Shown: piece by piece, positions 11,832 to 49,445 of the stretch
Layout: each line of letters begins with the position of its first letter
Numbering within the stretch: position 1 is the stretch's first letter
Virus record (IMG/VR): IMGVR_UViG_3300042691_038651
Coordinates: 1 to 64,000 of that record
Strand: one strand, 5' to 3'
Source of the DNA: a virus
DNA: 64,000 nt
Notes under the pieces: generated by a model
What the model was told of the DNA's origin: nothing
The model's input: the letters and a program-made list of their open reading frames with translations, nothing else
Database searches by the model: none
Position numbers and translations under genes: made by a program

Positions 11832-11840
11832 GATATATAG
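11832..11840 (+). promoter_or_regulatory. putative late promoter GATAWATA(G), representative site
   Basis: GATATATAG also at 5179, 28315, 42774, 55482 and 57065; variants at 19325, 23237, 24820, 26622, 60859 and 62925; all shortly upstream of late-type genes. Confidence 0.75.
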
Positions 11841-14861: not shown

Positions 14862-15458
14862 ATGAAGCATATAAAGACATTTGAGAGCTATGTTGTTAGC
14901 CTAAGTGAAGGACTAAACCCTTCCAAAATGAAAGAGCTGATTGCAGAGGTAGCTGAATTGTTAGCCGGACAACTAGCCGATGAAGGTATGGAATCTGATG
15001 AAGTGGAAAACTTTTTAGAGGAGTACCCAAATGCTGCAGAATCTACGCTGGAAGGCTTGGAGGATAAGTACGGAACTGACCTTGTCAACCTATGGCCCAA
15101 GATGAAAGCTGAGGTTATTAAAAAGGTACAAGAGATGCTAGATGAAAACGTTAATGAAGGCCGTTCAGACTTCCGCGAAATTGAAGGTAAAGACCTTGAA
15201 GACGTTTTGGATGCTGTTGCCTATTTGAATGGACAAGGACTTCCTGAAGTTGAAAAAGCTGTAAAAGGGAAAGCGCCTTACAAATTGATTGGCAGCAAAT
15301 CCGGATCTCCAAAAGGCGGCGGAATGCACATGTCATCAATTGATTTCCAAGAAAATCCAGGTGGCGTTAAAATGAGCGTTGGTGAATTCATCGATGTACT
15401 AAATACGGTATTGGATGACGCAGGCTACGACAAATTCAAAGTAAAAATCTTAAAGTAA
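14862..15458 (+). CDS. CTS-leader two-module protein
   Basis: MKHIKTFESYVVSLSE|G; internal LDENVNE|G. Confidence 0.7.
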   Translation: MKHIKTFESYVVSLSEGLNPSKMKELIAEVAELLAGQLADEGMESDEVENFLEEYPNAAESTLEGLEDKYGTDLVNLWPKMKAEVIKKVQEMLDENVNEGRSDFREIEGKDLEDVLDAVAYLNGQGLPEVEKAVKGKAPYKLIGSKSGSPKGGGMHMSSIDFQENPGGVKMSVGEFIDVLNTVLDDAGYDKFKVKILK

Positions 15459-16780
15459 TGGGTCTTAAAAACTACACACAATTCCTCAGAGAATCTGCTC
15501 TCATTGAAATGATGAGATTGGACCAGGAAGCTGGCCTATATGAGGAACATCTTTTTGAAGGCGGCGCATACGGTCACATCAGTCACCCGTTTGAAGACTT
15601 TGGTCTTACAATGGCTGACCTTCAAAATATGATCAATACAACTGTCAACGGTGCTTTTGGTCCTGAGAATTTTGTGCAGGAAAAGACCGATGGACAAAAC
15701 ATACTCATTTCTTGGAAGAACGGTAAGCTGATTGCTGCGAGAAACAAATCTCACTTAAAAAATGCGGGAGAAGCCGCATTGGATTCTTCTGGTATTGCCA
15801 ATATGTTTGCAGGTCGAGGAGACATTGAAACTGCATACAATGCGGCAATGGAAGATCTATCAGCTGCAATCGGAAAGCTTTCTGATGCTGACAAGAAAAA
15901 ATACTTTGAGGAAGGCAAGAAATTTGCTTCGGTTGAAGTAATTACCCCTATCACACAAAATACCGTTCCTTACGGAAAGGACATGTTAGTTCTTCACGGA
16001 GTAGTTGAACACGACGATGCCGGTAATGCGGTAGGTGAAGACAAACAGGCTGGCCGTGATTTAGGAAAACTTATTGCTGACGCAAATGCTGCAGCACAGA
16101 AAAAGTTCTATGTACGCGGTCCTCAAGATATTGCATCTGTGCCGTTCCCAAATACTAAAGCCCGCGCAGCTTATTATGACAAAAAGTTAGCCGAAGTTAT
16201 GGCAGAGAGCGGATCAAATCCCAGCAGTACTGTTGGTGATTATGCTTTAGGCATGGGTAAGCGTATTCTTCTTGAAGAGGCTGCCGCTGCAAAGGTAACA
16301 ATACCTGAAATTGCTGTTGATGGTTTAGCACGTCGCATTGCTGACATTGACAAATCATATAGTGTTCCACAGATCAAAAAAGATCTTGGTGCAGATGCTG
16401 ATTGGTTCATTACACTAGAGAAAGACAAAGGCAAAGCATTGAAGAGAAAGATCTATGCTCCGCTTGAGAGTCTGTTCCTGGAAATTGGAACCGAGATGAT
16501 GAAAAACATTAGCGCTTTCCTATCAGCCAATCCTACTGATGCGGCACAGGCAATGCGTAAAGAAATTGATAGTACAATCTCTAAGGTTCGCACCAACGGA
16601 GATGAAAAGGATGTAGAAAAACTTGAACATGAACTTACCCGAGTTGCTGCTGCCGGAGGATTGGAAAGTATTGTTCCAACTGAAGGCATCACATTCGTAT
16701 TCAATGGCAAGCTGTATAAATATACTGGAATCTTTGCTCCATTACACCAAATAAGAAGCATCCTTGCTTACAAAAAGTAA
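15458..16780 (+). CDS. ligase-like nucleotidyltransferase-fold protein with CTS-like leader
   Basis: MGLKNYTQFLRE; LFE|GGAYGHISHPF; ligase motif I EKTDG; EGITF resembles motif IV; YKYTG.FAP. Confidence 0.55.
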   Translation: MGLKNYTQFLRESALIEMMRLDQEAGLYEEHLFEGGAYGHISHPFEDFGLTMADLQNMINTTVNGAFGPENFVQEKTDGQNILISWKNGKLIAARNKSHLKNAGEAALDSSGIANMFAGRGDIETAYNAAMEDLSAAIGKLSDADKKKYFEEGKKFASVEVITPITQNTVPYGKDMLVLHGVVEHDDAGNAVGEDKQAGRDLGKLIADANAAAQKKFYVRGPQDIASVPFPNTKARAAYYDKKLAEVMAESGSNPSSTVGDYALGMGKRILLEEAAAAKVTIPEIAVDGLARRIADIDKSYSVPQIKKDLGADADWFITLEKDKGKALKRKIYAPLESLFLEIGTEMMKNISAFLSANPTDAAQAMRKEIDSTISKVRTNGDEKDVEKLEHELTRVAAAGGLESIVPTEGITFVFNGKLYKYTGIFAPLHQIRSILAYKK

Positions 16781-16787
16781 TATGAAC

Positions 16788-17180
16788 ATGAAAAGCATTA
16801 AAACATTCGAAGCCTTCTTGAGAGAAGCTGAGGAAGAAAAACCAAAAGGAAAAGAAGGAGAAGGCGCAGCTCAAGAACCGGAAGGTCCTACCATTGACAA
16901 AGATCAACCTCGAATGAAAGATTTTGAGATTGACGGAAAGAAATATAAAGGCGTTCTTTCTACATTTGCTGCTATTGCTAAAAAACAAGAGGCAATGGGC
17001 GAGACTGAAATAGGAATCCTCACATTACCTGGAGAGGCTGCTGCTTACGAGCTGTTTACTGATGAAGGAGAGAAAGATGAAGAAGGCGAAGGCGAGGAAA
17101 AGAAAGAAGAACCTAAAGAAGAACCAGCAGCTGAAGAGCCAAAAAAGAAGAAAGAGGACGAGCTGGATCTGAATCTCTAA
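16788..17180 (+). CDS. acidic CTS-leader protein
   Basis: MKSIKTFEAFLRE|A; E/K-rich. Confidence 0.65.
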   Translation: MKSIKTFEAFLREAEEEKPKGKEGEGAAQEPEGPTIDKDQPRMKDFEIDGKKYKGVLSTFAAIAKKQEAMGETEIGILTLPGEAAAYELFTDEGEKDEEGEGEEKKEEPKEEPAAEEPKKKKEDELDLNL

Positions 17181-17196
17181 AATAACTTTTTGATGT

Positions 17197-17805
17197 ATGT
17201 GCTATACACGTGAACAGATTGAAAAGGCCGTGAAGGCAAAAGGTTACAAATGGTTTGAAGATGCCGCTAACAAAACCTATGATGTAAATATCGTAGGAGT
17301 TCGTAACAATACTCCTTCAGTTGCCGATAAGGTTACCAACGTATTTGATGATTGCCTGACAATCTCTTACAAAGACGAAACAGGTGCATGGCAGTTTTAC
17401 TGCTGGATGGGAACCTGCGATCCTGGTAAAAAAGGCGTAGAACAGTTCCACAATAGCAGAGGAGTTGCTCGACTTGTTCCTGGACAATACCGCGGAGTTT
17501 GGATGATTGATAAACACCAAGGAAAGTACGATGCTCTTTGCCAAAGAGGCGGTAATGTTACTGTGTATCGAGATGCTGACCGCAATGCAACATTCAATGA
17601 AAGCGTGACTGACACGGGAATGTTTGGTATAAACATTCACAAAGCTGGCCAAGATTCAACCTGGGTTGAAAATTGGAGCGAGGGCTGTCAAGTTTTCAAA
17701 AGAGTAAAAGATTTTGATGCTTTTATGTCAATCTGTCGCAAAGCTGCAAAGATTCACGGAAACAAATTTTCTTACACTCTAATAGAATCAACTGATATTG
17801 CATGA
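17197..17805 (+). CDS. putative peptidoglycan-acting enzyme/endolysin (YkuD L,D-transpeptidase-like motif)
   Basis: GINIHKAG...WSEGCQVF has the H-x-n-SxGC catalytic arrangement; no CTS leader. Confidence 0.55.
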   Translation: MCYTREQIEKAVKAKGYKWFEDAANKTYDVNIVGVRNNTPSVADKVTNVFDDCLTISYKDETGAWQFYCWMGTCDPGKKGVEQFHNSRGVARLVPGQYRGVWMIDKHQGKYDALCQRGGNVTVYRDADRNATFNESVTDTGMFGINIHKAGQDSTWVENWSEGCQVFKRVKDFDAFMSICRKAAKIHGNKFSYTLIESTDIA

Positions 17806-18380
17806 ACTACATAAAGACATTTGAAAGCTTCATTTTTGAAGCGGATGGAAAAAAAGTTGTTTTCTTTCCAGGTAGGTTTCAGCCGTTTCACAATGGCCAC
17901 CTAGCCGCTTTGAAGAGAACTTCAGAAGAGTTTGGCTTGCCGGTTATTCCACTGCAAATTGTTTCCAAAAATGAAGACTCACCGTTTCCCGATGCTCTTC
18001 TCAATAAAATGGCAAAAGATGTGGTAGCTGCAAATAGCTTTATCGCTGACTTTTTCATCTATCCAAAAGGAGAAAAGACCGTCATTCCTATGATGGTACA
18101 ATTTCTTCGCAAACAGGGATACGAACCAATGGGACTGGGCGCCGGCGCTGACCGCATGAAAGACTATCTTCGTCAGGTTGACTACATCACGGGTCCTAAA
18201 ACCGATACACCGGTTGATCCCAGCTTTACAGTAAAAATGGTAGATGCCCGTGAAGGCGATGGACCAAGTGGAACAAAAGTTCGTCAAGCCTTGAAGGACG
18301 ACGACCAGGCAGCATTCAACGCTTTAATGCCAAAAGAACTACATAAATACTATAAGGAACTCCAAAAATACATACGCTAA
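17802..18380 (+). CDS. HxGH nucleotidyltransferase (cytidylyl/NMN-adenylyltransferase-like) with CTS leader
   Basis: MNYIKTFESFIFE|A; GRFQPFHNGH; GADR; SGTKVR. Confidence 0.8.
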   Translation: MNYIKTFESFIFEADGKKVVFFPGRFQPFHNGHLAALKRTSEEFGLPVIPLQIVSKNEDSPFPDALLNKMAKDVVAANSFIADFFIYPKGEKTVIPMMVQFLRKQGYEPMGLGAGADRMKDYLRQVDYITGPKTDTPVDPSFTVKMVDAREGDGPSGTKVRQALKDDDQAAFNALMPKELHKYYKELQKYIR

Positions 18381-18381
18381 T

Positions 18382-18720
18382 ATGAAACACATACACACAT
18401 TTGAAAGCTACATAAATGAATCTCATTACGCTTTCTTAGGAGGAAATTCCAATTTCACGGATGATGAAATGCGCAAAAATGTAGTCGACAAAGTATTGGG
18501 GAAAAAATATGATGCATACATCATGTTTGACGACGATGCACCAAAAGGAGAATATGACAAGATGAAAGCCAAATACGCTGCAAATACAGATGGGTGGGAA
18601 ACAATTTGGAGATCACAGTCATATCAAGGAGAAGCACGTCTTTCACCTGACAAGAAAGTTATTAAAGCAAGCATTTTTGGAAAAGGCGGAATCATCGGGG
18701 CCATCTATGTAAAGAAATAA
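18382..18720 (+). CDS. CTS-leader protein
   Basis: MKHIHTFESYINE|S. Confidence 0.7.
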   Translation: MKHIHTFESYINESHYAFLGGNSNFTDDEMRKNVVDKVLGKKYDAYIMFDDDAPKGEYDKMKAKYAANTDGWETIWRSQSYQGEARLSPDKKVIKASIFGKGGIIGAIYVKK

Positions 18721-18738
18721 TTCTATAACCGGTATGCA

Positions 18739-19371
18739 ATGATAGTAGATCTATTCGTACACAAAGACAAAAGCTCTCCCACAACTCAGGTTTGGCAGAG
18801 CTTTTTTAGTGAATACCTGCCGCATTGGAAACTGCGGCTCTGTTTTGCTGATGAAATTCTTAGATCTGACGCAAAACATGTACTATTCCCAGGCGGCTCA
18901 GGTTCAGCCTTTTACAAAGCTCTTGGAGAAGAAAACTCAGCAAGAGTCATTGATTGGGTACACCGTGGAGGATCATACATTGGTGTTTGTGCAGGCGCCT
19001 ACTTGGCATCCAGCCACTTAAAGATTACACCACTGTCCATACCGGACAAGGCATGGGAGCGCGGCTTACACGATGCTGACATACTGATGGATGGCAAGAT
19101 ACAAACCGTAAACTACCATAACGGACCAATCTTTGAGTCACATCCTAATGTGGAAGTATGGGCAACTTTTAAGAGTAATTACCTGGCAGAAGGTGGGTAT
19201 TTTGCAATGGAGGAAACTCCTGCAATTACTCATAATGAATACGGCATGGGCTTAGTTACCCTGTTTAGCCCGCATCTAGAAAAGTCGTCGCACGAAATAA
19301 AGAAAGAATTGGCTCTCATCTTTGAATATATAGAAAGTAAAAATCATCCAAGTCTCACATGCAATACGTAA
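18739..19371 (+). CDS. class I glutamine amidotransferase-like protein (BPL_N type)
   Basis: FPGGSG, YIGVCAGAYLA (Cys nucleophile elbow), SPHLE (His-x-Glu). Confidence 0.8.
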   Translation: MIVDLFVHKDKSSPTTQVWQSFFSEYLPHWKLRLCFADEILRSDAKHVLFPGGSGSAFYKALGEENSARVIDWVHRGGSYIGVCAGAYLASSHLKITPLSIPDKAWERGLHDADILMDGKIQTVNYHNGPIFESHPNVEVWATFKSNYLAEGGYFAMEETPAITHNEYGMGLVTLFSPHLEKSSHEIKKELALIFEYIESKNHPSLTCNT

Positions 19372-20450
19372 AACTCTTCGAGGAATTCATCTACGAGGAA
19401 AACTTCAAAAGCAAATATGCCAAAAAAGTGGCATGGATCATGCAGTCACACGACATTCATTCCACATCAGGAAATGTAAATGCTCGTGAAAAGAAATACA
19501 ATGTGGCTGCCAAAGGCAATCTCTTCCTTAATTTTGCAACTAAAGAGGAGTTTGACAAGGATGACATTATAGTTCCTAACAACGTTCCTATCCTCTACTA
19601 TGGTGGATCTAAGGACGAGGAATCAGCAACTTTTATCAAAAACAAAAAGATTGTAGTAGATAACCTCTACAATAAGAGAGACTTGCTAATGATTTCTGGA
19701 GATAAAACCCAGTTTGCTGAAAAAGCCAACAAGTTCAACTGGTTGCCAAAGACCGTATTTTCCAAGAAGGAAGCTGTTGACGGCGCGGTAGGATTCCCGG
19801 TAATTGCCAAGATCAAAAACGGTCACAGTGGAAAAGGAATTCAAAAGTTTGACACAGCAGAAGAATTAGAAAAGAGCAAAGAGACGTTTGACCTCTTTTG
19901 CCAGTTTATTGATTTTGACCGTGAGTACCGTGTAATGTTCTGCCGTGACAAGATCATCGTGATCAACGAAAGAGTCCCGACCATCGAGGACAACCGCTCC
20001 ATCCGCACCAAGAAAGCGGATGAAAAAATTAGCTTCACTTATGTCTACCAAGACCAAAATAAAGTTGACAAAAGCTTTATTGAGCAGGTATTGTCAATAT
20101 GTAAAGACGTCAAAACATTCCTCGATTTGGACCTTTGGGCCCTTGATGTGGTGGTAGACAAAAAAGGAAAACTCTGGGTGATGGAAACATCATCTGCGAC
20201 AGGATTGGGTAGCGTGAAAATGTGCGAAGTCTATAAAGCAATCTATGAAGACTTCTACAAGGAGCCGCTTCCCGATGAATTTTTGCAAGACATCTACTTA
20301 AACTATGTAGTTCCCGGACATCAAAACTACTATCCCAAGTACAAAAAAGAAATACAGTCATCGCAGTGGCCGATGGACTATGAAATACTAACCAACCCTA
20401 AAGCCAAAGATGGCTATAGGTACTTTTTCAATCTAGACGTTAAAAAATGA
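19359..20450 (+). CDS. ATP-grasp (RimK-like) ligase with CTS leader
   Basis: MQYVKLFEEFIYE; FPVIAKIKNGHSGKGI, QFID..REYRV, ALDVVVDKKGKLWVMETSS. Confidence 0.8.
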   Translation: MQYVKLFEEFIYEENFKSKYAKKVAWIMQSHDIHSTSGNVNAREKKYNVAAKGNLFLNFATKEEFDKDDIIVPNNVPILYYGGSKDEESATFIKNKKIVVDNLYNKRDLLMISGDKTQFAEKANKFNWLPKTVFSKKEAVDGAVGFPVIAKIKNGHSGKGIQKFDTAEELEKSKETFDLFCQFIDFDREYRVMFCRDKIIVINERVPTIEDNRSIRTKKADEKISFTYVYQDQNKVDKSFIEQVLSICKDVKTFLDLDLWALDVVVDKKGKLWVMETSSATGLGSVKMCEVYKAIYEDFYKEPLPDEFLQDIYLNYVVPGHQNYYPKYKKEIQSSQWPMDYEILTNPKAKDGYRYFFNLDVKK

Positions 20451-21505
20451 GAACCGGAGTTTTTAAGACATCATACAAGGAAAACGAAAAGCGCATTCCA
20501 ATCTATCCTGAGCACATTCGCAAAATCAAGAGAAGTGTTCGTGAACAATTAGTATTTGAAGAAGGTTATGGTCTTGACTATGGATATTCTGATGAAGATC
20601 TAAGAGATCTAGGATGCAGCCTGGCAACAAGAGAAGAACTATATCAATGCGATACGGTCATTCTTCCTAAACCAGTTGCTGCTGACTTGGAAAAACTTAA
20701 GGACGGCGCAGTACTCTGCGGATGGACACATGCTGTTCAGCAGAGAGATATCGCTGACCTGGCTATTGAAAAAGGTCTGACCCTGTTGGCATGGGAAGAG
20801 ATGAACCTAGTCAATAAGCACGGTAAAATGCACATTTTTTACCGTAACAATGAATTGGCCGGGTACGCGGGAATCTTACATTTCCTAGAACTTAAAGGAC
20901 TGGATGGCCACTATGGACCACGCAAAAATGTAGTAATCTTGGGCTATGGCTCGGTTAGTCGCGGGGCAATTTATGCTCTGCAAGGCCGCGGATTCAATAA
21001 TATCGTGGTTTATACACAAAGGCCTTCGCACCTGGTAGTTGACAAAAATCCGGATGTATGGTACAAGTCGTTTAGTACTGACAATTTGATGGAAGACTTG
21101 ATGGGTGCTGACATCATTTTCAATGGAATCTTACAAGACGTAAATGCTCCACTGACCTACATAAAGAACGAGGCGGAACTCAATGCTCTAAAGAATAACA
21201 CTGCTATTATTGACATTAGCTGTGATAAAGGCATGGGATTCTATTTTGCTGAACCTACATCATTTGAAAGTCCTATCATTGAAATGGGTCGTGGAATTTC
21301 ATACTACTCGGTAGACCATACACCTACCTATCTGTGGAATGCAGCATCCCGTGAAATCTCAAGTGCATTGCTTCCATATTTGGAAACTATCGTGGATTCC
21401 AGCAAATGGATCAATGACGCGGTGATCTATAATTCAATTGATATTCTCAATGGTAAAGTGATCAACCAAAATATAAACAAGTTCCAAGGACGTGAAGCAC
21501 ATTAA
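20447..21505 (+). CDS. ceo: N(5)-(carboxyethyl)ornithine synthase-like oxidoreductase (AlaDH/PNT family)
   Basis: KENEKRIPIYP, FEEGYG, GWTHAVQ, AWEEM, NNELAGYAG, Rossmann GYGSVSRGA, DISCD, VDHTPT. Confidence 0.8.
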   Translation: MRTGVFKTSYKENEKRIPIYPEHIRKIKRSVREQLVFEEGYGLDYGYSDEDLRDLGCSLATREELYQCDTVILPKPVAADLEKLKDGAVLCGWTHAVQQRDIADLAIEKGLTLLAWEEMNLVNKHGKMHIFYRNNELAGYAGILHFLELKGLDGHYGPRKNVVILGYGSVSRGAIYALQGRGFNNIVVYTQRPSHLVVDKNPDVWYKSFSTDNLMEDLMGADIIFNGILQDVNAPLTYIKNEAELNALKNNTAIIDISCDKGMGFYFAEPTSFESPIIEMGRGISYYSVDHTPTYLWNAASREISSALLPYLETIVDSSKWINDAVIYNSIDILNGKVINQNINKFQGREAH

Positions 21506-22163
21506 GACATATGAAAGCTACCTATATGAGCAAGCCATTAATGAAATAGGCGAAGGCGTAACTCCATTTGCTTGGAAGCGAGTGGGCTCAGCTAAAGTGG
21601 ATGGCTGGATGGCTGATATGTCTCAACACGACAGAAGCAGCTCGAGCCAAAACATTAGGCTCCCTGACCTAGAATATGAATTTAAGAGTGACAAGACGGA
21701 GTATCTTGTAAAAATTGCTGGTTGGTTTAGCCCTTATACATACATTAATTTTGGTGCCAAAAATCCAAATTGGAAAAAGCCGCATGATTACGATGTATTG
21801 ATTAGTGTTGCTTTTGTTGATAAACACGGCGGAATCGGAACCGACAAAGAAAAGCTCACAAACTATGGCGAACAATTCAAGGTAATTTCAACAGTTTCTG
21901 CCATATTACAAGAAGTAATGAAAGAGTTGCAGGAGATAGAGTGGATCAAAGTTAAAGAAATCTACATAGCTCCTAAATTGGAAGATGCTGATGAAGGCAA
22001 ACCAATTACTCAAACCAAGCGTGGCAGACTCTATCTGGAATACATAAAGAAACAAGGAAGCAAGCTTAAAGGGGATTGGACTGCTTCTATTGAAAAAGAC
22101 TCTTTTGTGATAAGGAGCGGAAAATGGAGTGGTGGCTCACCAGGACAGTTTATACAACTATGA
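21492..22163 (+). CDS. CTS-leader protein
   Basis: GTG start, MKHIKTYESYLYE..INE. Confidence 0.7.
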   Translation: MKHIKTYESYLYEQAINEIGEGVTPFAWKRVGSAKVDGWMADMSQHDRSSSSQNIRLPDLEYEFKSDKTEYLVKIAGWFSPYTYINFGAKNPNWKKPHDYDVLISVAFVDKHGGIGTDKEKLTNYGEQFKVISTVSAILQEVMKELQEIEWIKVKEIYIAPKLEDADEGKPITQTKRGRLYLEYIKKQGSKLKGDWTASIEKDSFVIRSGKWSGGSPGQFIQL

Positions 22164-22714
22164 AATACGTAAAGACATATGAGAGTTTTGTCCATGAAAT
22201 GGAAATACCTTCAGGCAAATGGGTTGAGTATGACTTATCCAAACTTGGTGAAGAAGAGATGAAACTTATTTGGGATATGTACACTGAAACATACGCCAAA
22301 CAAGGTATGGACTTATCGGCCGATGATTGGAAAGAATTGCAGAGTAAATATAAAGCAACTGCTCTTAAAGATGTTGATCGCGATACTGAACCTGATGCAT
22401 TCATAATCTATAAACCAACCAAATGGGGCAACAAGATTGCACTATTAGGAACCAACAATAAGAAGGAAGCTAAATCTGATGTTGTTAAGAAACTTCTAGA
22501 TCTTGTAAAAACTAAAGGTTGGTTTCTTGAGGCAAGTCTCAAAATGGAAGAAATCTTATCAAGCAACAATGCTCCGGTTATTACTGATGAAAAGATGATA
22601 CGCGATGTTGTTGGTGCGGATAAGAAGCCTGAGTTTGAAGAAGATGGTTACTATACAAGGTTCTTATCTAAAGCAGGAAAAAGAATACGTAAAAGAATGT
22701 ACGGCATATTATGA
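22160..22714 (+). CDS. CTS-leader protein
   Basis: MKYVKTYESFVHE; start moved from 22124 to the leader. Confidence 0.7.
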   Translation: MKYVKTYESFVHEMEIPSGKWVEYDLSKLGEEEMKLIWDMYTETYAKQGMDLSADDWKELQSKYKATALKDVDRDTEPDAFIIYKPTKWGNKIALLGTNNKKEAKSDVVKKLLDLVKTKGWFLEASLKMEEILSSNNAPVITDEKMIRDVVGADKKPEFEEDGYYTRFLSKAGKRIRKRMYGIL

Positions 22715-23238
22715 AATACGTAAAGACATTTGAAGACTTTCAGGTTTCCGAAGGATTCCACTACCACATGGAAAACGGGTTGGACATTACTAACAGTGTC
22801 TACCGAATTGGTAGTGATGCCTATAAGCAACTCTTTGAAGAGACTAAAAAGTACTGGGATGAAGGCAATGTAATCTTGAAAGATAAGGCTGCCTGGATGG
22901 CTGCTAATCTGGAAGTTGGAAAGCCTGCCGTTAACAAAGATGGTCGTAAGGTTGAACTTGATACGCCAAGACGCGGTGGAGACAAGAAGTTTGTAGTTTA
23001 CCACAACAGCGGTAAGAAAGATGATGATGGAAACATCATTGCAAACGAAATTACATGGGGTGACACTAGCGGACTTAGCATTAAGAACGATGACCCGAAG
23101 GCTTCTGCCTCTTTCTGGTCTCGCCAACAGTGTGACCTTAAAAAGAAAATGGACCCAAGCACCGCAGGGTTTTGGGCATGCTATGCGCCTTCTCTGTTTG
23201 GTAAACAACTCGGTTTAAGCTCCGAAGAACCTTGGTAA
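22711..23238 (+). CDS. CTS-leader protein with a conserved phage domain (DUF6321-like, from recall)
   Basis: MKYVKTFEDFQVSE|G; KKFVVY...WGD..GLSIK...SFWSRQQC...AGFWAC. Confidence 0.6.
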   Translation: MKYVKTFEDFQVSEGFHYHMENGLDITNSVYRIGSDAYKQLFEETKKYWDEGNVILKDKAAWMAANLEVGKPAVNKDGRKVELDTPRRGGDKKFVVYHNSGKKDDDGNIIANEITWGDTSGLSIKNDDPKASASFWSRQQCDLKKKMDPSTAGFWACYAPSLFGKQLGLSSEEPW

Positions 23239-23263
23239 TATATAGCAAAAATACAAAACAATC

Positions 23264-23833
23264 ATGACTCAGGTAAAAACTTTTTCAGAAAGTCTAAAAA
23301 AGAGAAGTATAAATGAAGCAATTACAGTAGGCGGACCTATTGCAAAGCCAAATGCATTACCAGGTGAGGTTGAGAAAACTCTCAATGACCGTTTAGGAGA
23401 TGAGTACACTGCGTACTATTTCTATCAAAATGCAGCTAACTGGTGCAAGAATGCCAATTACAAAAAGGCAGCAGCTTTCTTTGAAGCTGAAGCAGCCGGT
23501 GAACTTGGTCACGCTCAAGGAATTCAGGACTATCTAACATCTTGGAATCTTCTTCCTGCAATTCCGTCAGTGCCAACACAGGTACAATTCTCTAGCCTGG
23601 TTGATATCATCAATAAGGCATACGAATTAGAGTACGCTCTATTGCAAAAGTATTCTGACAATCAGTTAGAACTTGATAAAACGCATCCTGCAGCCTTCAA
23701 CTTCATTCAGAAGTACGTGGACATTCAGGTAGGTGAAGTTACTGAATACTCAGACTACCTAAATGCTCTTGAGCTTGTGAACGTAGACAACCGTCTTGAT
23801 GTTCTCTACTTTGAAAACCAATACTTTGGATAA
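23264..23833 (+). CDS. ferritin with CTS-like leader
   Basis: MTQVKTFSE...INE|A; EYTAYYFY, FFEAEAAGELGHA, AYELE, Q..EVTE ferroxidase-like residues. Confidence 0.8.
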   Translation: MTQVKTFSESLKKRSINEAITVGGPIAKPNALPGEVEKTLNDRLGDEYTAYYFYQNAANWCKNANYKKAAAFFEAEAAGELGHAQGIQDYLTSWNLLPAIPSVPTQVQFSSLVDIINKAYELEYALLQKYSDNQLELDKTHPAAFNFIQKYVDIQVGEVTEYSDYLNALELVNVDNRLDVLYFENQYFG

Positions 23834-23834
23834 G

Positions 23835-24548
23835 ATGAAACACATCAAAACATTTGAAAGCTTCGTTAACGAAGCACAAGACCTGGTAACATTTACCATT
23901 GACGATGATAAGCTCGACCAGCTTCTTCATGATTTTCATAAGAGAGAACTGGACTATGTAGATGTTAAAGGCGACCAGTATTACACACTGCCTCGTAGAG
24001 AATTCGATAGATTTATGGATGCTGCGGACAGCAAAGGATTCGATGTAGACTATGAAGGGTCTGAAGACTCCGTTGTCTATGTGATGGAATCTTCTATGAC
24101 AAAACTGAGTGAAGGGTATATGAGCGAACTTGATATCATACGTCAAGAGAGCAAGACTCTTGAAGAGTTCATCAAAAAAGGAAAAGCTGCTTTCCCGAAA
24201 ATTGCAAAGATGCATCATGCTGATGATTTCTTCAAAGAACTTTGGAATATGGCTCAGCAGATAAAAGAAGGTTTAAACGAATCCACCAACAGATGGTACA
24301 ATAAGATGTTGAGTCTTGGTAAATTAGGCGTTCAATTCAAATGGGTTAGTGATTTGGTCTCTCAGTCAGAAGGACTTAAAGATTCAGTAAAGAAGCACTT
24401 TTCCGGTGTAAATGAAAGAGATTTGGCAATAATTTTCAAAAGAGAAGCTGGTGCCAAATGGGATAAAGCATGCGAAATTTTTGGTGGAGTTCTCGGCAAT
24501 GATAAATCATCAGGAGAATTTGCAATTGTAAATGTAAGAACTGCATAA
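23835..24548 (+). CDS. CTS-leader three-module protein
   Basis: MKHIKTFESFVNE|A; internal VMESSMTKLSE|G and IKEGLNE|S. Confidence 0.7.
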   Translation: MKHIKTFESFVNEAQDLVTFTIDDDKLDQLLHDFHKRELDYVDVKGDQYYTLPRREFDRFMDAADSKGFDVDYEGSEDSVVYVMESSMTKLSEGYMSELDIIRQESKTLEEFIKKGKAAFPKIAKMHHADDFFKELWNMAQQIKEGLNESTNRWYNKMLSLGKLGVQFKWVSDLVSQSEGLKDSVKKHFSGVNERDLAIIFKREAGAKWDKACEIFGGVLGNDKSSGEFAIVNVRTA

Positions 24549-24835
24549 TGAAACCTTTCAAAGAGGAGAAACTAGAAGAGACCGTCTACGTAAGGACATT
24601 TTCTTCGGAAACTCCAGAATCCGAGCTAAAGTGGCATTGGGACGAGGAGGATAGAATTGTAGAAGCAATTGAACCAACTGACTGGAAGTTTCAGTTTGAC
24701 AATCAACTGCCGATAGCGTTTGACAAGCCAATACGAGTGGATGCCGGAGATTTTCACAGAGTCATTAAGGGATCTGGAAATCTAGTTGTAAAGGTCACAA
24801 AACTTCCTACAGCGGAGAGGATAAATAGACTGTAA
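24548..24835 (+). CDS. small cupin-like protein
   Basis: ELKWHWDEEDR...WKFQFDNQLP...FHRVIKG. Confidence 0.55.
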   Translation: MKPFKEEKLEETVYVRTFSSETPESELKWHWDEEDRIVEAIEPTDWKFQFDNQLPIAFDKPIRVDAGDFHRVIKGSGNLVVKVTKLPTAERINRL

Positions 24836-24850
24836 AAAATCACATTAGAA

Positions 24851-25384
24851 ATGAAACACGTAAATAACTATGAAGGCTATTTGAAGGAAAGCAATTCCTT
24901 TGACGGCATGTTAAATGAGGGTACTACTCTCTATATTAGCGATCCTAAATTTAAGGATGTTGAAACTCTGAAAGCTGACATTCTTAAAAATGCAGGTCCT
25001 GCACTTAATGATTTGCTAAGTCGCCAAGGTATCAAGTACAATCCGTTGACCGCTGCTGATAGAAGAGGAACCCGCATTACATTTGAAAGTAAGCCACTAA
25101 CTGGCAACGATCTTGGTGTTATGCAATACGGATTCAAAGAGGTTTACATCAATATCTTTAATGGTGGAGATTACCCGCAAATCAACAAGGCTGCTGGTGA
25201 AAACTTTGAGTTCTCTCCTTACATCTGGGCTACTCTAAACTATATGTACCAGCATGTGCTTGGTGGATCTAATGGATGCGGTTTGGTATTTCCAGGAGAA
25301 GACCGTGATTCAATCTACTATGATGTGGTAGGTGGAAAATGGTTAACAGCAACAGAAGCTAGCAAACGCAAAGACTGGAAATAA
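24851..25384 (+). CDS. CTS-leader protein
   Basis: MKHVNNYEGYLKE..MLNE|G; upstream GATAAATAG. Confidence 0.65.
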   Translation: MKHVNNYEGYLKESNSFDGMLNEGTTLYISDPKFKDVETLKADILKNAGPALNDLLSRQGIKYNPLTAADRRGTRITFESKPLTGNDLGVMQYGFKEVYINIFNGGDYPQINKAAGENFEFSPYIWATLNYMYQHVLGGSNGCGLVFPGEDRDSIYYDVVGGKWLTATEASKRKDWK

Positions 25385-25401
25385 TGAACTTCTTTTTCAA
25401 T

Positions 25402-25755
25402 ATGAAACACATCAAACTCTTCGAAGAATATCGATACGAGACTCGTGATATGTCATATTGGACATCCCAAAAGTCAGAGGATGAATACTTAAAAGGCCGC
25501 TTTCCTTGGTTAGCTACTAGCATAACAAAAGAATCTGAGCTTTCTGCGTTCGTAACCAAATGTATTGAAAGATGGAATCGTGAAGGCGAAAAGAACGAAC
25601 AGGTTACCAAGAAAGCCGCTGATACTGTTCAGAAGATTGCGCTAAAATACTTTCAACAATTTAATACCATTGATGGCTTTATCATAAATGCAATGATTAG
25701 AGAATTGCCAAAAACTGGAATAAAACTAAAAGATCTTGCAAATGAAGTACGTTAA
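25402..25755 (+). CDS. CTS-leader protein, homologous to the last module of 43224..44009
   Basis: MKHIKLFEEYRYE; DMSYW...YFQQFNTIDGFIINAMI. Confidence 0.7.
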   Translation: MKHIKLFEEYRYETRDMSYWTSQKSEDEYLKGRFPWLATSITKESELSAFVTKCIERWNREGEKNEQVTKKAADTVQKIALKYFQQFNTIDGFIINAMIRELPKTGIKLKDLANEVR

Positions 25756-26626
25756 GCTATTTGAGCAATTCATATTGGAAAGTGGTAATAGCGTAGACGG
25801 AGCAATTCCGTTTAAGCAAGACCAGGTAATGCCTACCGTTGATTGGGTAGTCAAAAACATTTTTCCGGAGCTTGGTCTTGTAGGACTTGACGATGATTCA
25901 GCAATTCTTGGTAGCGCTGGAAAAAAATTAGCTGACCAGACCAGCGGAGACGTTGATTTGGCAGTATCGGCTGACAAGATTGCAGGACACTTAGGCGTAT
26001 CTCTAGATAAAACATTATTTGCTCTAAACGATAAACTAAAGAGCATGGGATATTCTACCAAAATGGCGGTAGGATTCAACCAGGTGAGTATTGGCGTTCC
26101 TATTGCAGGAGATCCTAAAAATGGAGTTGGCCAATTAGACTTTATGCTATCCACTGACCTGGATTGGAGCAAATTCATTTATCATTCACCCGACTTCCGC
26201 GCTGCGGAGTCAAAATACAAAGGAGCTTACCGTAACCTGTTGCTCATGGCAACAATTGGCAAGTCATTCTTTGAAATCACCAAATCAACAGATAAAGGCG
26301 AGGTTGCTGAATACAAAGCATACGTTGTCCGCCTTAATCAGGGTATTGTGGAAGTTCGTAAGTCTTTCGAAGGAAAAAAAGGACTTGTGAAAACTGCACA
26401 GCTACTTAAACAATACGACAAAGAAATCACACGAGAACCACAAAAAGTGGTAGACCTTCTATTTAATGGAGGGCACAAGCCGTCTGACATCGATACCTAC
26501 GAAAAGCTATTGTCATTACTACAATCCGGAGACTTCAAATATCCGAACGTAATGAATGATATCTTATCCGACTTCAAAGGTAAGCTGGAAGACGCTGGGC
26601 TTCCTCTACCTGAAGGCCTCGGATAA
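25742..26626 (+). CDS. Pol-beta-type nucleotidyltransferase with CTS leader
   Basis: MKYVKLFEQFILE|S; LGSAGKK...SGDVDLAV (GS...DxD); third Asp in QLDFM. Confidence 0.7.
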   Translation: MKYVKLFEQFILESGNSVDGAIPFKQDQVMPTVDWVVKNIFPELGLVGLDDDSAILGSAGKKLADQTSGDVDLAVSADKIAGHLGVSLDKTLFALNDKLKSMGYSTKMAVGFNQVSIGVPIAGDPKNGVGQLDFMLSTDLDWSKFIYHSPDFRAAESKYKGAYRNLLLMATIGKSFFEITKSTDKGEVAEYKAYVVRLNQGIVEVRKSFEGKKGLVKTAQLLKQYDKEITREPQKVVDLLFNGGHKPSDIDTYEKLLSLLQSGDFKYPNVMNDILSDFKGKLEDAGLPLPEGLG

Positions 26627-26636
26627 ATAAGATATC

Positions 26637-28313
26637 ATGGCAGGAATCAACACACTACAAGAGGTTTACAAAAAGCGAGGAGAAGAATGGACAAGAGAAT
26701 TCTTGTCATCTGAACTACGCATCACAGAAAAAGCAGAGGCATACCGCTTCTCTTTTGAGTTGTCAAAAAACGGGAAGCTGCGTTTCTATGGAAAGAACGC
26801 GGAAGATCCGTTAAATAGAATTGACAGAACAGTTAGCGATTTGTATGAGAGCGCCATCGGCAAAATTGAAAAGTTGCCCGACGCAATCATAGGCAACCTG
26901 CCTCGCAGTCATAGATTTGGCTTTAATTGGGCTCCGGATAACGGGCTTACTCTAACCGACATCACAGTACGTCAACATGGCAAAGTCACCAAACAGATTC
27001 ACGAGAAAACTGTATTGGAGAGATGGGCATCGCTGTTACACGTAAAGTACGGTGAAGAGGTCTACAAAGGAAAGCTGGAAGAGACCAAGGTAGAAACCTT
27101 AATGGAAAGCCTTCGTCGAGGGGAATCTCCTCTATTTGAAACTATCAGCAATCAAAAGACTTACATTATTCGTGGTGAAGAAGGTATTGCCAAAATTACG
27201 CCATCACAGCCAAGACAGATTCGTGAACAAAAAAGTCACGGATTTGATCTCTTGCTATTGCAGATCTATGAACACCTAGAAGGAATTGATTTTGAAAAAT
27301 TTGTGTTTAGGTCAGAACGTCCAGACGAGAGATACCTAGAAATTGTATGCGAAGCTTTTAATCACTTTGTTGCTGAACGAGGCGTAGAATTCCTGGAGAT
27401 GGGAATCAAAAAGCCAACGTTCCTGGAAAAATCTGGTAAGTTTAACCCAAAATGGATCCGCAATAATCGTACACTTTCATACATTAGCGAGAGCAAAGAC
27501 TATGAGTATTTGCTTAGCATATTCATCACAAACTTAAGAAAACCCAAGAAGGCAACTGGGTTATTGACAGAATCTTTTGTTGACAACTACAACAAAACAA
27601 TTCACAGCATTGACGAGGCTGTTCGAAATGCAGATGACTATGAATTCCCAGAGTTTAACAGCATCTTGGAAAAGGAAAACGATCTGAGAACAGACAATGG
27701 ATTCTCGGAAGACGATTCCATGAAAGCCGTTGCAATGATGCAAGCAGTTTTTGCTCTTCCATATCGCGGAACACACGAAGAGGAAGAACCCGAAGTAAAA
27801 CATGAATGCAATGTATTGGCAATGAACATGGGACAGTTTACCAATAAGGTTCTTAATGAATGCGAACGTATTCTCAAGCTTACTGGTAAAGGCTTTACAT
27901 TGATACACGATATCAATGCAGGAGAAAACTGTAAATGGGGTATGGCAAAAGAGGATGGTGCCCGAGCTGCAAATCAGCTAGTCAAAGATTATCCTCATAT
28001 TTTTGAATGTTCCGAGTCTCTATCAAATCCTACAATTGCAGCAATACAAAAAGCTGCAGGACCGAGAGATGTAAAGAGAATATACACAGGAAGATCATGT
28101 GATTCATTAGTAAAGGAATGCGACCTACAAAATACCATCAGTGGAAAGAAACTGGACCTTGAGATAACAAAGGTTGCCGGCAACTCTGACCGTGAAATTG
28201 AGGAATGCATGGACCGTGAAGATTACAAAACTTTCAAGGAGATTTTCCCTGACAGCATACAAAAGTTTTGGGAACCTATGAGAACTCAATGGAACTCTAA
28301 GGCATACCTCTAA
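26637..28313 (+). CDS. hypothetical 558-aa protein, possibly a degenerate ligase-like + HxGH-like fusion
   Basis: ITEKAEA sits at the ligase motif I position; the C-terminus resembles the end of 17802..18380; upstream GATAAATAA. Confidence 0.5.
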   Translation: MAGINTLQEVYKKRGEEWTREFLSSELRITEKAEAYRFSFELSKNGKLRFYGKNAEDPLNRIDRTVSDLYESAIGKIEKLPDAIIGNLPRSHRFGFNWAPDNGLTLTDITVRQHGKVTKQIHEKTVLERWASLLHVKYGEEVYKGKLEETKVETLMESLRRGESPLFETISNQKTYIIRGEEGIAKITPSQPRQIREQKSHGFDLLLLQIYEHLEGIDFEKFVFRSERPDERYLEIVCEAFNHFVAERGVEFLEMGIKKPTFLEKSGKFNPKWIRNNRTLSYISESKDYEYLLSIFITNLRKPKKATGLLTESFVDNYNKTIHSIDEAVRNADDYEFPEFNSILEKENDLRTDNGFSEDDSMKAVAMMQAVFALPYRGTHEEEEPEVKHECNVLAMNMGQFTNKVLNECERILKLTGKGFTLIHDINAGENCKWGMAKEDGARAANQLVKDYPHIFECSESLSNPTIAAIQKAAGPRDVKRIYTGRSCDSLVKECDLQNTISGKKLDLEITKVAGNSDREIEECMDREDYKTFKEIFPDSIQKFWEPMRTQWNSKAYL

Positions 28314-33331: not shown

Positions 33332-33823
33332 ATGATTAAGTACAGCAAACTTCGAGACGTAAAGTCGCCGTCTCGAGGTACATCGCAGTCCGCAGGAGTG
33401 GACTTTTTTGTTCCTAACGATTGGAACGGCGGTGAACCTCGACCAGTATTACCTGGCGACCGTGTCTTGATTCCAAGCGGAATCAAGGTAAGCATCCCAA
33501 CAGGGTATGCGCTAATTGCATTCAATAAGAGTGGAGTGGCATCTAAAACAGGATTGATCGTTGGTGCTTGCGTGGTAGATGAAGACTACCAAGGCGAGGT
33601 TCACATCAATATGATCAATACCAACACGGAGAAGGAATACTTCTCGGATGGCCACTATGTAAAAGACAGCGGAATTGTTACCATAACTCCAGGAGAGAAG
33701 CTGGTTCAGTTCTTGTTAGTACCCATCAATTATGCTGGGCTACAGGAATTGCCAATTGAGGAATTATACACTGCGACAACTGAACGCGGTGACGGAGGAT
33801 TTGGATCAACAGGAACGCTATGA
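33332..33823 (+). CDS. dut: dUTPase (trimeric)
   Basis: SAGVDF, NKSGVA, VVDEDYQGE, GEKLVQ, RGDGGFGSTG. Confidence 0.95.
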   Translation: MIKYSKLRDVKSPSRGTSQSAGVDFFVPNDWNGGEPRPVLPGDRVLIPSGIKVSIPTGYALIAFNKSGVASKTGLIVGACVVDEDYQGEVHINMINTNTEKEYFSDGHYVKDSGIVTITPGEKLVQFLLVPINYAGLQELPIEELYTATTERGDGGFGSTGTL

Positions 33824-35193
33824 TAGACATCGAACAAAGAGACTCAACCCTGCAAATTTCATACTTTGACAGGGAAGGCGAAATTGCCATCAAAAAGTTT
33901 CTCATTCCAGCAAATGAAATGTTTGAATGGGAGTACTGTGATGCCCGTGATAAGTATGCAGAACCTGGCATAACTAGCTGGGATGGCAAACCAGTCCGTA
34001 AACGCAAGACAAAGTTCTTGAGTAAGTGGAGGCTGGAAGAATACCTCTATTCTCTTCCCGAAGAGGAAACAAATGACATTTATGAATTCAACATTCCTAA
34101 AAAGTTCTTTGTGGATATTGAGGTAGAGGTGACTGACGAATGGCCAAAACCGGAAACAGCCAAGTTTCCAGTTACAACGGTTGCTTTCTGTAGAGATAAC
34201 CGTGTAATTGTAATGGGAACCAAGCCGCTGTCGGCTGACCAAATTGCATCAATCGGAAAGCGCATCAATGATTACCTGAAAGAGGAAGTTGACTTTAGCT
34301 ATATGTACTTCAAATCTGAGTATGATATGCTATACACATTCTTCCATAAGGCTCTTCAGAAGATGCCAGTAATTACAGGATGGAACTTCGTAGGTTTCGA
34401 CTGGACGTATCTTATCAATCGCTGTAAGCGTTTAGGTATTGATCCTTCCGTCGCTTCTCCATCTCGTAAACTCTCTGGTCAATCCGAACTTCCACAGCAC
34501 AGGTTGGTAGTCGATTACCTGGATGTCTATAAGAAATGGGACCGCCAAATTGATGTCAAGGAAAACAATACTCTTGACTGGGTTGCTAAAGCAGCGCTTG
34601 GAATTCAAAAGGTAAAATATCCCGGAACATTACAAGAACTCTATGAATCTGACTTTGACCAATACGTATTCTACAATGCGGTGGATGCCAAGTTAGTACA
34701 GATGATTGACCGAAAGTTAAACTCACTGCTTACTTTCCTTAAGCTTGGACATATTTCCAAAGTGGAAGCAACCCGAGCGTATTCACCAATCTGGATGGCG
34801 GAAGGTGCAATGGCAAGAGAAAACTGCCGTCGGAACCGGGTATTTCCAAAAGCCGACACTTCCAAAAAACGCAGAGAAGCCTATGAAGGTGCATTTGTTC
34901 ATGAACCAAAAACTGGATTGTATCAGTGGGTTACATCATTCGACTTTGCTTCTCTATATCCAACGGTAATGAGGCAGTGGAACATTTCACCTGAGAGTTA
35001 CATCAAAAATCTGGCACCTGGCGAAGAGATTGATCTGGAAAAATACATCAAAACTGCATCGGGCGCGGTATTCTCAAGAGAGGAATCCGTCTTTACCAGC
35101 ATCTTGGTGGAATACTACGGAAAGCGTAAACAGGCCAAGAAAATCTCTCAGGACATAGAAAGAGAAATTGCTGAGTTGCAAAAATATATATGA
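33820..35193 (+). CDS. family B DNA polymerase, N-terminal subunit (exonuclease + motif A)
   Basis: DIEV (ExoI), GWNFVGFD (ExoII), YNAVD (ExoIII), SFDFASLYP; ends in the fingers after KRKQAKK. Confidence 0.92.
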   Translation: MIDIEQRDSTLQISYFDREGEIAIKKFLIPANEMFEWEYCDARDKYAEPGITSWDGKPVRKRKTKFLSKWRLEEYLYSLPEEETNDIYEFNIPKKFFVDIEVEVTDEWPKPETAKFPVTTVAFCRDNRVIVMGTKPLSADQIASIGKRINDYLKEEVDFSYMYFKSEYDMLYTFFHKALQKMPVITGWNFVGFDWTYLINRCKRLGIDPSVASPSRKLSGQSELPQHRLVVDYLDVYKKWDRQIDVKENNTLDWVAKAALGIQKVKYPGTLQELYESDFDQYVFYNAVDAKLVQMIDRKLNSLLTFLKLGHISKVEATRAYSPIWMAEGAMARENCRRNRVFPKADTSKKRREAYEGAFVHEPKTGLYQWVTSFDFASLYPTVMRQWNISPESYIKNLAPGEEIDLEKYIKTASGAVFSREESVFTSILVEYYGKRKQAKKISQDIEREIAELQKYI

Positions 35194-48260: not shown

Positions 48261-49445
48261 ATGGTGAGTACATACAAACATTGTCAAATTGACCCAAAGA
48301 CCGCATCAAGGGATGAGATCCTGGCTGAAATTGCCAGGCTCAATGCCCTGATGAATGAGAAGGGTAATGAGGAACAGGCAATCAAGATCTTCATTAACTC
48401 TATCTATGGTGCAACGGCTTCACCCTACTTTGTTGGTTACAACGTTCGGGTAGCGGAAGCTATTACGCTTCAGGGACAGGACATCATTAAGTTTGTATCA
48501 AAAACCATCAACCGTTACTTTCATGAATTTTGGCATCGTGATACTGAGCTTCATACCAAGCTGGGTATCACGAAAGTCGAAAAGGTAAAAGATGAAGTAA
48601 CAATCTACGGCGACACCGACTCCGCCTATGTATCGTTCCAGGAGCCTCTCTTTGGTTCAGATTGGAAAGGCGAGGATCCCACTGAATTTGTACTTGGCGT
48701 TTACAACCACCGTCTAAAAGACTACCTCAAAAAGGCTTTTGATAAATATGGCCAAATGTGGGGTACGGAAAACATTCAGGATTTGGAAATGGAAACCATC
48801 TCATATTCCGCAATCTTCCTTCGCAAGAAGAAGTATGTATTGGATTTGCGATGGAAAGATCCTGGCGTATTCTTTGAACCACAGTCCAAGATCAAGGCCA
48901 AAGGCGTGGAAATTGCACAGTCATCCACACCAAGTTTCATTCGTCTCAGAATGAAAAAGCTCTTGGAGTATATTTTCAGGGAAAAAGACAAACTGAACCT
49001 TCGCACTTTTGCAGATCTTCTTAAAGAAGAAAAGCGGGCGTTCACCGTAGAAAACATCGAAAACGTAGCATTCTCATCATCCATCAGCGATTATGAAAAA
49101 GGCATTTCCGATGACCGTAAAAAGTTGGTGATTAATGCACACTGTCCGATACACGTCCGGGCCGCAGGTTACCACAACTACTTGCTCAACAATTCAAAGT
49201 GGAAGAACAAGTATCAACTCATCAAATCAGGAGACAAAGTTCGTTATTACTACGCAAAAGCCGAACGCGGCGAAGAAAATGTATTTGCATTCCTGCCCGG
49301 TAACTTCCCGGTAGAACTGGCACCTGCTGTAGATTATGATACTCAATTTTCAAAAGGATTGATTGAACCTCTAAACCGGTTTATCTCGGCTATTGGTCTT
49401 CCTCCAATCTCTTCTGAAATCATTGTTCGAACACAACTCTTCTAA
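48261..49445 (+). CDS. family B DNA polymerase, C-terminal subunit (motifs B and C, thumb)
   Basis: KIFINSIYG, AEAITLQGQ, YGDTDS, KKKY, KGVE..QSSTP, PIHVRAA. Confidence 0.93.
   Translation: MVSTYKHCQIDPKTASRDEILAEIARLNALMNEKGNEEQAIKIFINSIYGATASPYFVGYNVRVAEAITLQGQDIIKFVSKTINRYFHEFWHRDTELHTKLGITKVEKVKDEVTIYGDTDSAYVSFQEPLFGSDWKGEDPTEFVLGVYNHRLKDYLKKAFDKYGQMWGTENIQDLEMETISYSAIFLRKKKYVLDLRWKDPGVFFEPQSKIKAKGVEIAQSSTPSFIRLRMKKLLEYIFREKDKLNLRTFADLLKEEKRAFTVENIENVAFSSSISDYEKGISDDRKKLVINAHCPIHVRAAGYHNYLLNNSKWKNKYQLIKSGDKVRYYYAKAERGEENVFAFLPGNFPVELAPAVDYDTQFSKGLIEPLNRFISAIGLPPISSEIIVRTQLF

Follow-up and report, generated by a model that had tools for sequence, protein, structure and literature searches.

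Why should three different nucleotidyl-transfer enzymes encoded by one phage begin with the same short peptide? The question is raised by the first 64 kb (64,000 nucleotides, hereafter the window) of a 100,842-bp viral contig, IMG/VR record IMGVR_UViG_3300042691_038651, rated about 35% complete by CheckV. An earlier note, made from the letters alone, had pointed there to a ligase-fold protein, an HxGH protein and a Pol-beta-type nucleotidyltransferase with a common N-terminal leader, and had proposed that they form a toolkit. The three open reading frames (ORFs), with their motifs and leader, are indeed present, all on the + strand: a ligase-like covalent nucleotidyltransferase (15458-16780, 440 aa), an NMNAT-like nucleotidyltransferase of the HIGH superfamily (17802-18380, 192 aa) and a Pol-beta-fold nucleotidyltransferase, minimal and family-X-like with palm and thumb (25742-26626, 294 aa, hereafter PolX-like). 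Together with a fourth ORF of 558 aa, they are the separated parts of one conserved, widespread phage module. Taken as a whole, our reading is that of a module delivered in the phage head which would heal and seal broken nucleic acid, probably RNA, a proposal drawn from sequence to which we give an even chance of being right.

Within the window, the consensus of the leader is MKHI[KH]TFE[SN]F[LIV]NE, then G, A or S. The canonical form occupies residues 1-13 of both the HIGH ORF (MNYIKTFESFIFE, followed by A) and the PolX-like ORF (MKYVKLFEQFILE, followed by S); the ligase-like ORF starts with a diverged version (residues 1-12, MGLKNYTQFLRE, followed by S) that still obeys a strict rule, namely that [FY]xx[FY][LIVM]xE must begin no later than residue 11. 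Of 137 crude ORFs on the + strand of the 100.8-kb contig, 22 obey this rule, whereas its frequency in the remainder of these proteins would predict 0.49; the 22 are confined to positions 11858-44009, and the last 36 kb of the contig have none. The leader codons vary synonymously (TTT/TTC, GAA/GAG, six Leu codons) while the residues stay fixed or are conservatively changed; selection therefore acts on the peptide, not on the DNA.

Conservation of the leader is highest at aromatic 7, aromatic 10, aliphatic 11 and Glu 13, which all three enzymes keep and whose spacing (i, i+3, i+4, i+6) is exactly that of the critical positions of the capsid-targeting sequence (CTS) of bacteriophage T4, MKTYQEFIAE (PMC8442874). 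Mutational work on the latter has assigned residues 4 and 7 to targeting and residues 8 and 10 to processing, the protease gp21 cleaving after L/I-x-E (PMC9026906). All three ORFs have an aromatic residue at CTS positions 4 and 7, an aliphatic one at 8 and Glu at 10. As in T4, we are thus dealing with a short N-terminal propeptide on unrelated proteins, with aromatics spaced by three and followed by the aliphatic residue and Glu of the L/I-x-E site; a gp21-type protease in relatives and a T4-type portal in this genome add to the likeness. The differences are that the leader has 13 residues here with an extra MKHI(K) start, that it is found on at least 22 proteins in this fragment versus a handful in T4, that its cargo includes several enzymes, and that fusion polyproteins with internal sites occur, all of this being known here from sequence alone.

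The leader is spoken in genome-specific dialects, KTFESF here and IPTFEDF or KLFEQF in other contigs, and the HIGH enzyme always bears the dialect of the unrelated leader genes of its own genome, which is expected if one receptor per phage must fit all cargo. Orthologues of the ligase-like protein show a second dialect, MxxLLKFxDFVxxLNES. Two leader classes are found together in related loci (L010, L013, L018 and others), a 13-residue type (MKHIKTFESFLNE) and a longer MxLLKFxxFVxxxLNE type, the latter used mainly by ligase-like and PolX-like proteins. A full-text literature search for the leader string returned no paper.

A Peptidase_S77 domain, the gp21 type, scores above the Pfam cut-off in 4 of the 5 near-complete relatives that have the same module. 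Its match covers about 115 residues inside frames of 614-643 aa (L083-L086; relatives G001-G004), much longer than T4 gp21, and the protease of these relatives seems to be fused to something else. As for cut sites, the ligase-like protein of the window has a second L-x-E at residues 32-34, directly ahead of an invariant GGAYGH; across the family, [LIVMF]-x-E precedes the invariant GGxxGH that opens the ligase domain in 115 of 117 close homologs; for copies located inside fusion proteins, the figure is 86 of 111. Sites located at internal fusion junctions are, by their very position, unrelated to translation start.

This last count bears on a different explanation of the leader, in which it is not a head-loading signal at all: the enzymes would be cytoplasmic, and their common N-terminus would be a translation-start context working without a Shine-Dalgarno sequence, a tag for localisation or degradation, or a handle through which genes are shuffled by recombination. 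Such an explanation can draw on starts that overlap stops with no evident Shine-Dalgarno-like sequence upstream, on leader genes lying in arrays that resemble shuffled cassettes, and on a module member, the 558-aa protein, that does without the canonical leader. We nevertheless consider it unlikely, since it is the peptide that is conserved while its codons vary synonymously, the conserved positions are those of T4 targeting and processing, the leader ends in a gp21 site, L/I-x-E recurs at internal junctions where translation start is irrelevant, and the matching protease family is encoded by relatives. Head loading, which the sequence motivates well, is the role that we favour. By likeness to the T4 signal, we infer packaging, cleavage and injection before gene expression: the N-terminal propeptide, of the T4 capsid-targeting type, would dock each protein onto the assembling head core, a prohead protease of the T4 gp21 type would remove it after L/I-x-E, and the mature enzymes would be carried in the head and delivered into the cell along with the DNA, ahead of any phage gene expression.

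That the three enzymes belong together is best seen in relatives. We compared 34 distinct related layouts, the fetched locus being at most about 21 kb: all three genes are present together in 24 of them, in the order ligase, HIGH, PolX-like in 20 of these 24 and in direct abutment in 4, while a homolog of the 558-aa gene comes directly after the PolX-like gene in 11 of the 24. The window keeps the order ligase, HIGH, PolX-like, 558-aa, interrupted by nine further genes with a leader and a few without; as the trio genes abut in relatives, these interleaved ORFs look like insertions into the cassette.

Fusions tell the same story. A profile search of 1.84 billion representatives retrieved 1806 clusters (50% identity), and most module members are named merely “cytidyltransferase-like” or “hypothetical”. 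Counting in the best 149 representatives of these 1806 clusters, at 50% identity, the HIGH and ligase-like domains are in one chain in 86, and all three domains in three (P0470, P0482 and P0485). In four others (P0394, P0406, P0434 and P0451), one of which also has an HD domain, the head domain of a class II CCA-adding enzyme/poly(A) polymerase (PF01743, E down to 1.6e-64) and an RNA-binding domain are fused to the ligase-like domain, and the order HIGH, PolyA_pol, ligase of P0434 mirrors the order HIGH, PolX-like, ligase of P0485. A CCA-adding-type enzyme fused to the ligase domain, once at the very place of the PolX-like one, points to RNA-end repair. Still other fusions have an N-terminal P-loop kinase (AAA_33/Zeta_toxin). 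Among cultured phages, a search for the fused form gave only Microcystis phage Mel-JY01, with a 639-aa HIGH-ligase fusion annotated just “cytidylyltransferase like”, together with two uncultured huge-phage records; BFVD gave a weak match to a “cytidyltransferase-like” protein of S-PM2 (E 0.11). Synteny and fusions show that the three enzymes act together, and the idea of a toolkit, for which the earlier note had wished to see co-occurrence across phages, comes out strengthened. We did not find the pairing of a HIGH adenylyltransferase with an RNA-ligase-like protein described in the literature; the trio as one module, the substitution by a CCA enzyme, the dialect test and the count of internal-junction sites are new here.

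The first enzyme, the ligase-like protein, contains QEKTDGQ at residues 74-80, with motif I as K76-T-D-G79; residues 196-400, roughly 200 aa, form a helical region upstream of EGITF (409-413) and GKLYKY (417-422). Across 54 sequences there is no variation at K76, D78, G79, E160, E409-G410 and K421, and even the most diverged fusions retain these residues. No Pfam, NCBIfam or PHROG family matches the protein at E ≤ 0.01, curated ligase models (RNA_ligase, RNA_lig_T4_1, DNA_ligase_A_M) included, and a PDB sequence search gave no match, even with the 54-sequence profile. Its structure model has a pLDDT (predicted local distance difference test) of 76, is weak at residues 73-78, and has no predicted OB domain. 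The top Foldseek entries are RNA ligases only, though weak (E 0.06-1), and in structure comparison the model fits well only RNA-ligase-type adenylyltransferase domains: Trl1 is best (score 6.4), then T4 Rnl2 (5.8), archaeal Rnl3 and Naegleria Rnl5 (4.5 each) and T4 Rnl1 (4.1). Judged by the first aligned pairs, K76 is placed on the catalytic Lys of Rnl1, Rnl2, Rnl3, Rnl5 and Trl1, model residue 77 pairing with Rnl1 100 (K99), 78 with Palaeococcus (Ppa Rnl) 94 (K92) and 76 with Naegleria (NgrRnl) 170 (K170), where the numbers of the catalytic lysines are those of the entry titles. From its model, the protein probably belongs to the covalent nucleotidyltransferase superfamily, where it sides with the RNA ligases and falls outside every curated family. 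The earlier assignment to a ligase fold gains from the KTDG motif I and from the RNA-ligase structural matches; having no sequence-family match, it stands on a weaker basis than the other two.

Three side observations concern this family. DUF6267 (PF19782), put forward by a language-model atlas as a name for the ligase-like protein, was dropped, as a direct search of the genome with that model was empty; full-text literature searches for DUF6267 and for Mel-JY01 found no paper. Some ligase-like genes are stretched (L031-L035), the tblastn match spanning 1.7-1.8 kb for 440 residues, and one fusion protein (alignment A5) bears intein and Hint domains, which suggests inteins or insertions within the family.

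The PolX-like protein is better placed. Its catalytic signature (G57-S58, D70-x-D72, D133) is invariant in 46 sequences and has the layout of the Pol-beta superfamily, hG[GS], DxD 9-13 residues on, and a third carboxylate on a later strand. The fold is that of a Pol X palm and thumb. The best structural match is the Pol X of African swine fever virus (ASFV; score 9.6, 154 residues aligned, root-mean-square deviation 3.0), followed by pol beta, pol lambda, TdT and Thermus PolX (8.9-9.4, with palm plus thumb covered; pol beta palm-thumb 9.4), and RNA uridylyltransferases are matched on the palm only (7-8). The protein has no Pfam family at E ≤ 0.01, hence no match to PF10127 (RlaP). That the third enzyme is a minimal Pol-X-like nucleotidyltransferase is firmly predicted by its model, template use and a preference for RNA or DNA lying beyond structure alone; the Pol-beta type announced earlier is therefore borne out and sharpened. 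TAL-effector repeats, returned by a single-sequence PDB search, were rejected as an artefact: sub-threshold repeat matches had been summed with no single significant stretch, and the family profile came back empty.

Because its best structural matches are family X DNA polymerases, one may picture a DNA repair kit for the entering genome, with gaps filled by a minimal Pol X and nicks, left by packaging or by restriction and nuclease damage, closed by the ligase-like enzyme. ASFV, which has a comparable set around its minimal Pol X, lends some weight to this picture; it is, however, a eukaryotic virus whose Pol X acts on DNA, and the ligase partner here resembles an RNA ligase. We regard the DNA kit as quite unlikely and favour RNA, because a kinase, an end-adding enzyme and an OB-less ligase are the very grammar of RNA end healing and sealing. 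A precedent exists in RlaP and in the CCA-adding enzymes of jumbo phages, where a Pol-beta-fold enzyme is genetically tied to an RNA ligase: Pol-beta enzymes of the RlaP type cooperate with RNA ligases in repair and have been proposed to put back missing 3' nucleotides ahead of the sealing step (PMC12776372; jumbo-phage survey PMC7824862). The likeness extends to the real CCA-adding-type domain that takes the PolX-like place in some module relatives; the difference is that the protein of the window does not match PF10127 and finds its closest structures among thumb-bearing minimal polymerases of family X. It may have the function of RlaP while lying outside that family.

The HIGH protein bears FPGRFQPFHNGH at residues 22-33, with HxGH at 30-33, and SGTKVR at 156-161. 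It matches Pfam CTP_transf_like (PF01467) above cut-off, with an E of 2.5e-7, and NCBIfam TIGR00125 at 32.6 bits for a cut-off of 27.7 bits. G24, R25, F26, P28, H30, H33, S156, G157, T158 and R161, and a D-R pair too, do not vary among 41 homologs, in all of which the leader is likewise retained. Membership of the HIGH superfamily is firm at the sequence level, and NMNAT appears as its nearest family: the best match of the family profile in the PDB is the archaeal NMNAT MJ0541 (7.5e-8), with the GRFQPFHxGH stretch in common; PPAT and the TmcAL-like MJ0951 come close behind.

This stretch had led to the suggestion of a NadM-type NMN adenylyltransferase, and with it to the plainest account of the protein, a true NMNAT that rebuilds NAD+ against NAD-depleting defences and whose nearness to the other two enzymes is incidental. 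The likeness to NadM is real, as both have a Rossmann HIGH fold, GRFQPFHxGH and SxTxxR (SGTxxR in common with MJ0541, the best PDB match, family profile E 7.5e-8), and some depositors have labelled relatives from Stenotrophomonas phages as NMNAT. The scores, on the other hand, are far below the cut-offs of NMNAT models (26.5 versus 181.2 bits for TIGR01527, 30.6 versus 127 bits for NF002243) and match mainly over the motif regions, PPAT and MJ0951 are nearly as good, and the protein differs from NadM and from the phage NadV-NatV salvage pair in lacking both a Nudix fusion and a consistent NAMPT partner. A NAPRTase/NAMPT-family gene was not found in this fragment; of four near-complete relatives just one has such a gene, some 100 kb away from the cassette (Nudix genes were not searched for). 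This rarity and the fusions speak against simple NAD salvage as the role of the HIGH protein. Its joining to a ligase-like domain, seen in most of the diverged relatives and needless for a free-standing salvage enzyme, suggests a role inside the ligase module rather than stand-alone NAD rebuilding. Of the NadM proposal, the motif match to MJ0541 is borne out, the placing in the NMNAT family only in part; we deem a genuine NAD+-rebuilding NMNAT very unlikely.

When would these genes be expressed? The octamer ATATATAG (mostly GATATATAG) has 13 copies on the + strand of the contig and none on the - strand, about 4 being expected. They are mostly found in gaps 25-34 nt ahead of start codons, genes of the head/neck/tail region included, and the motif is kept by the closest relatives and mostly absent from more distant ones. 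Eight sites are in the window (5180, 11833, 19326, 23238, 28316, 42775, 55483 and 57066) and five more lie beyond 64 kb. The copy at 11833-11840 (+) heads the block of leader genes that holds the ligase-like and HIGH genes; that at 23238-23245 (+), 26 nt before a ferritin-like ORF, is the nearest one upstream of the PolX-like and 558-aa genes. The motif resembles a late promoter, and late expression of the leader block may be proposed on these grounds.

Putting these lines together, the module most likely serves the repair of nucleic acid, probably RNA, with catalysis, RNA substrate and the part of the HIGH enzyme predicted from sequence. Broken strands, for example of tRNA cut by host defence nucleases, would be healed and sealed: the PolX-like enzyme would restore lost 3' nucleotides, and the OB-less ligase-like enzyme would seal the ends through its catalytic Lys76. 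As for the HIGH enzyme, we can only speculate that it either activates the terminal phosphate by adenylylation or provides the ligase locally with an adenylyl donor such as NAD+. The closest known counterparts are T4 tRNA repair (Pnkp and Rnl1) and Trl1, the fungal and plant tRNA ligase with ligase, kinase and phosphodiesterase in one chain, whose ligase domain is the best structural match. They have in common with the module an OB-less, ATP-type ligase domain with KxDG set beside end-processing enzymes, sometimes with a P-loop kinase fusion. They differ from it in sequence-family membership, which the ligase-like protein lacks, in the helical region of about 200 aa that the latter has between the motif III/IIIa region and motifs IV-V, and in the constant HIGH nucleotidyltransferase partner, absent from both T4 and Trl1. 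The T4 tRNA repair enzymes are made after infection and are not known to be packaged.

Several points weigh against a packaged repair module of this kind. We found no literature precedent for a HIGH enzyme in RNA repair, and the best structural matches of the PolX-like enzyme are, as said, DNA polymerases. No Peptidase_S77 turned up in these 100 kb, a mere 35% or so of the genome, and the L/I-x-E ahead of GGxxGH could be a structural feature and not a cleavage site. The 558-aa partner has no canonical leader, the late-promoter-like nature of ATATATAG is itself deduced from sequence, and no cultured close relative of this phage was found among deposited phages. A bolder version goes further and makes of the module a head-borne RNA repair kit, active from the first second of infection against abortive-infection nucleases, in which the HIGH partner would perform a chemistry new to its fold (adenylylation of a polynucleotide terminal phosphate, or on-site NAD+ supply for an NAD+-using ligase) and the ligase would found a new RNA-ligase clade, with a helical domain inserted before motifs IV-V; we hold this version as doubtful.

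What is at stake goes beyond one contig. T4 packs a few small proteins and one enzyme (Alt) through a short tag; the same kind of tag here marks dozens of genes, a complete enzyme module among them. If this is true, the injected cargo of many uncultured lake and marine phages could be read straight from their genomes. The module itself is unstudied, and if the kit is packaged and does repair RNA, it would provide counter-defence before phage transcription, a timing that is important against tRNA-cutting defences. The leader is moreover a candidate portable packaging tag, and the ligase and end-adding enzyme are candidate new RNA tools.

The fourth module member, located at 26637-28313 (+), has a C-terminal region of about 170 aa that is a degenerate HIGH-like domain with its HxGH replaced (hhalign against the HIGH family, 93.7% probability, E 1.9e-7). 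For the N-terminal part of about 385 aa, the language-model atlas gives clusters of RNA_ligase PF09414 (0.89-0.90), which we treat as a lead only. This part is possibly a second RNA-ligase-like domain, an idea for which the atlas is the one lead, since hhalign detects no relation between the families of the 558-aa and the ligase-like proteins.

The nine leader ORFs interleaved between 16788 and 25755, all on the + strand, are at 16788-17180, 18382-18720, 19359-20450, 21492-22163, 22160-22714, 22711-23238, 23835-24548, 24851-25384 and 25402-25755. Among their neighbours, a 202-aa leaderless ORF between the ligase-like and HIGH genes (17197-17805) matches phrog_3000 (E 3e-32) and also an endolysin PHROG (E 4.8e-11). 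A three-gene cluster occupies 18739-21505, between the HIGH and PolX-like genes, with two leaderless proteins, one BPL_N/class-I glutamine-amidotransferase-like and the other of the alanine-dehydrogenase/PNT fold, and an ATP-grasp enzyme (the ORF at 19359-20450) with leader MQYVKLFEEFIYE, weak RimK-like and R2K matches, and ATATATAG 33 nt before its start. The ferritin-like protein (23264-23833; PF00210, E 2e-19) has a leader-like start (MTQVKTFSESLKKRSINE, followed by A) directly behind ATATATAG, and may be a packaged iron-handling protein.

Concerning the phage as a whole, a 100,842-bp contig rated at only about 35% completeness implies a genome of jumbo size. All genes of the contig are on the + strand and their content is T4-like: gp32-like single-stranded DNA-binding protein, primase, helicases, UvsX, gp46/47-like nuclease, topoisomerase II, a clamp loader, a split family-B polymerase, an NAD-dependent ligase, a large terminase and a portal of the T4 gp20 type. 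A megablast of the region against deposited phages gave no match and no close deposited genome. A contig with 90% identity occurs in lake viromes. The nearest deposited relatives of the portal are from uncultured huge phages and Lak megaphages, and the PolX-like protein also shows Lak-phage affinity. Upstream of the listed starts between 13000 and 32700 of the window, no Shine-Dalgarno-like sequence is evident, and stop/start overlaps are many (TAATG, ATGA); taken with the affinities to Lak phages just named, this hints at a Bacteroidota host. Finally, the family-B DNA polymerase is carried by two genes 13 kb apart, the N-terminal exonuclease part at 33820-35193 and the C-terminal polymerase part at 48261-49445.

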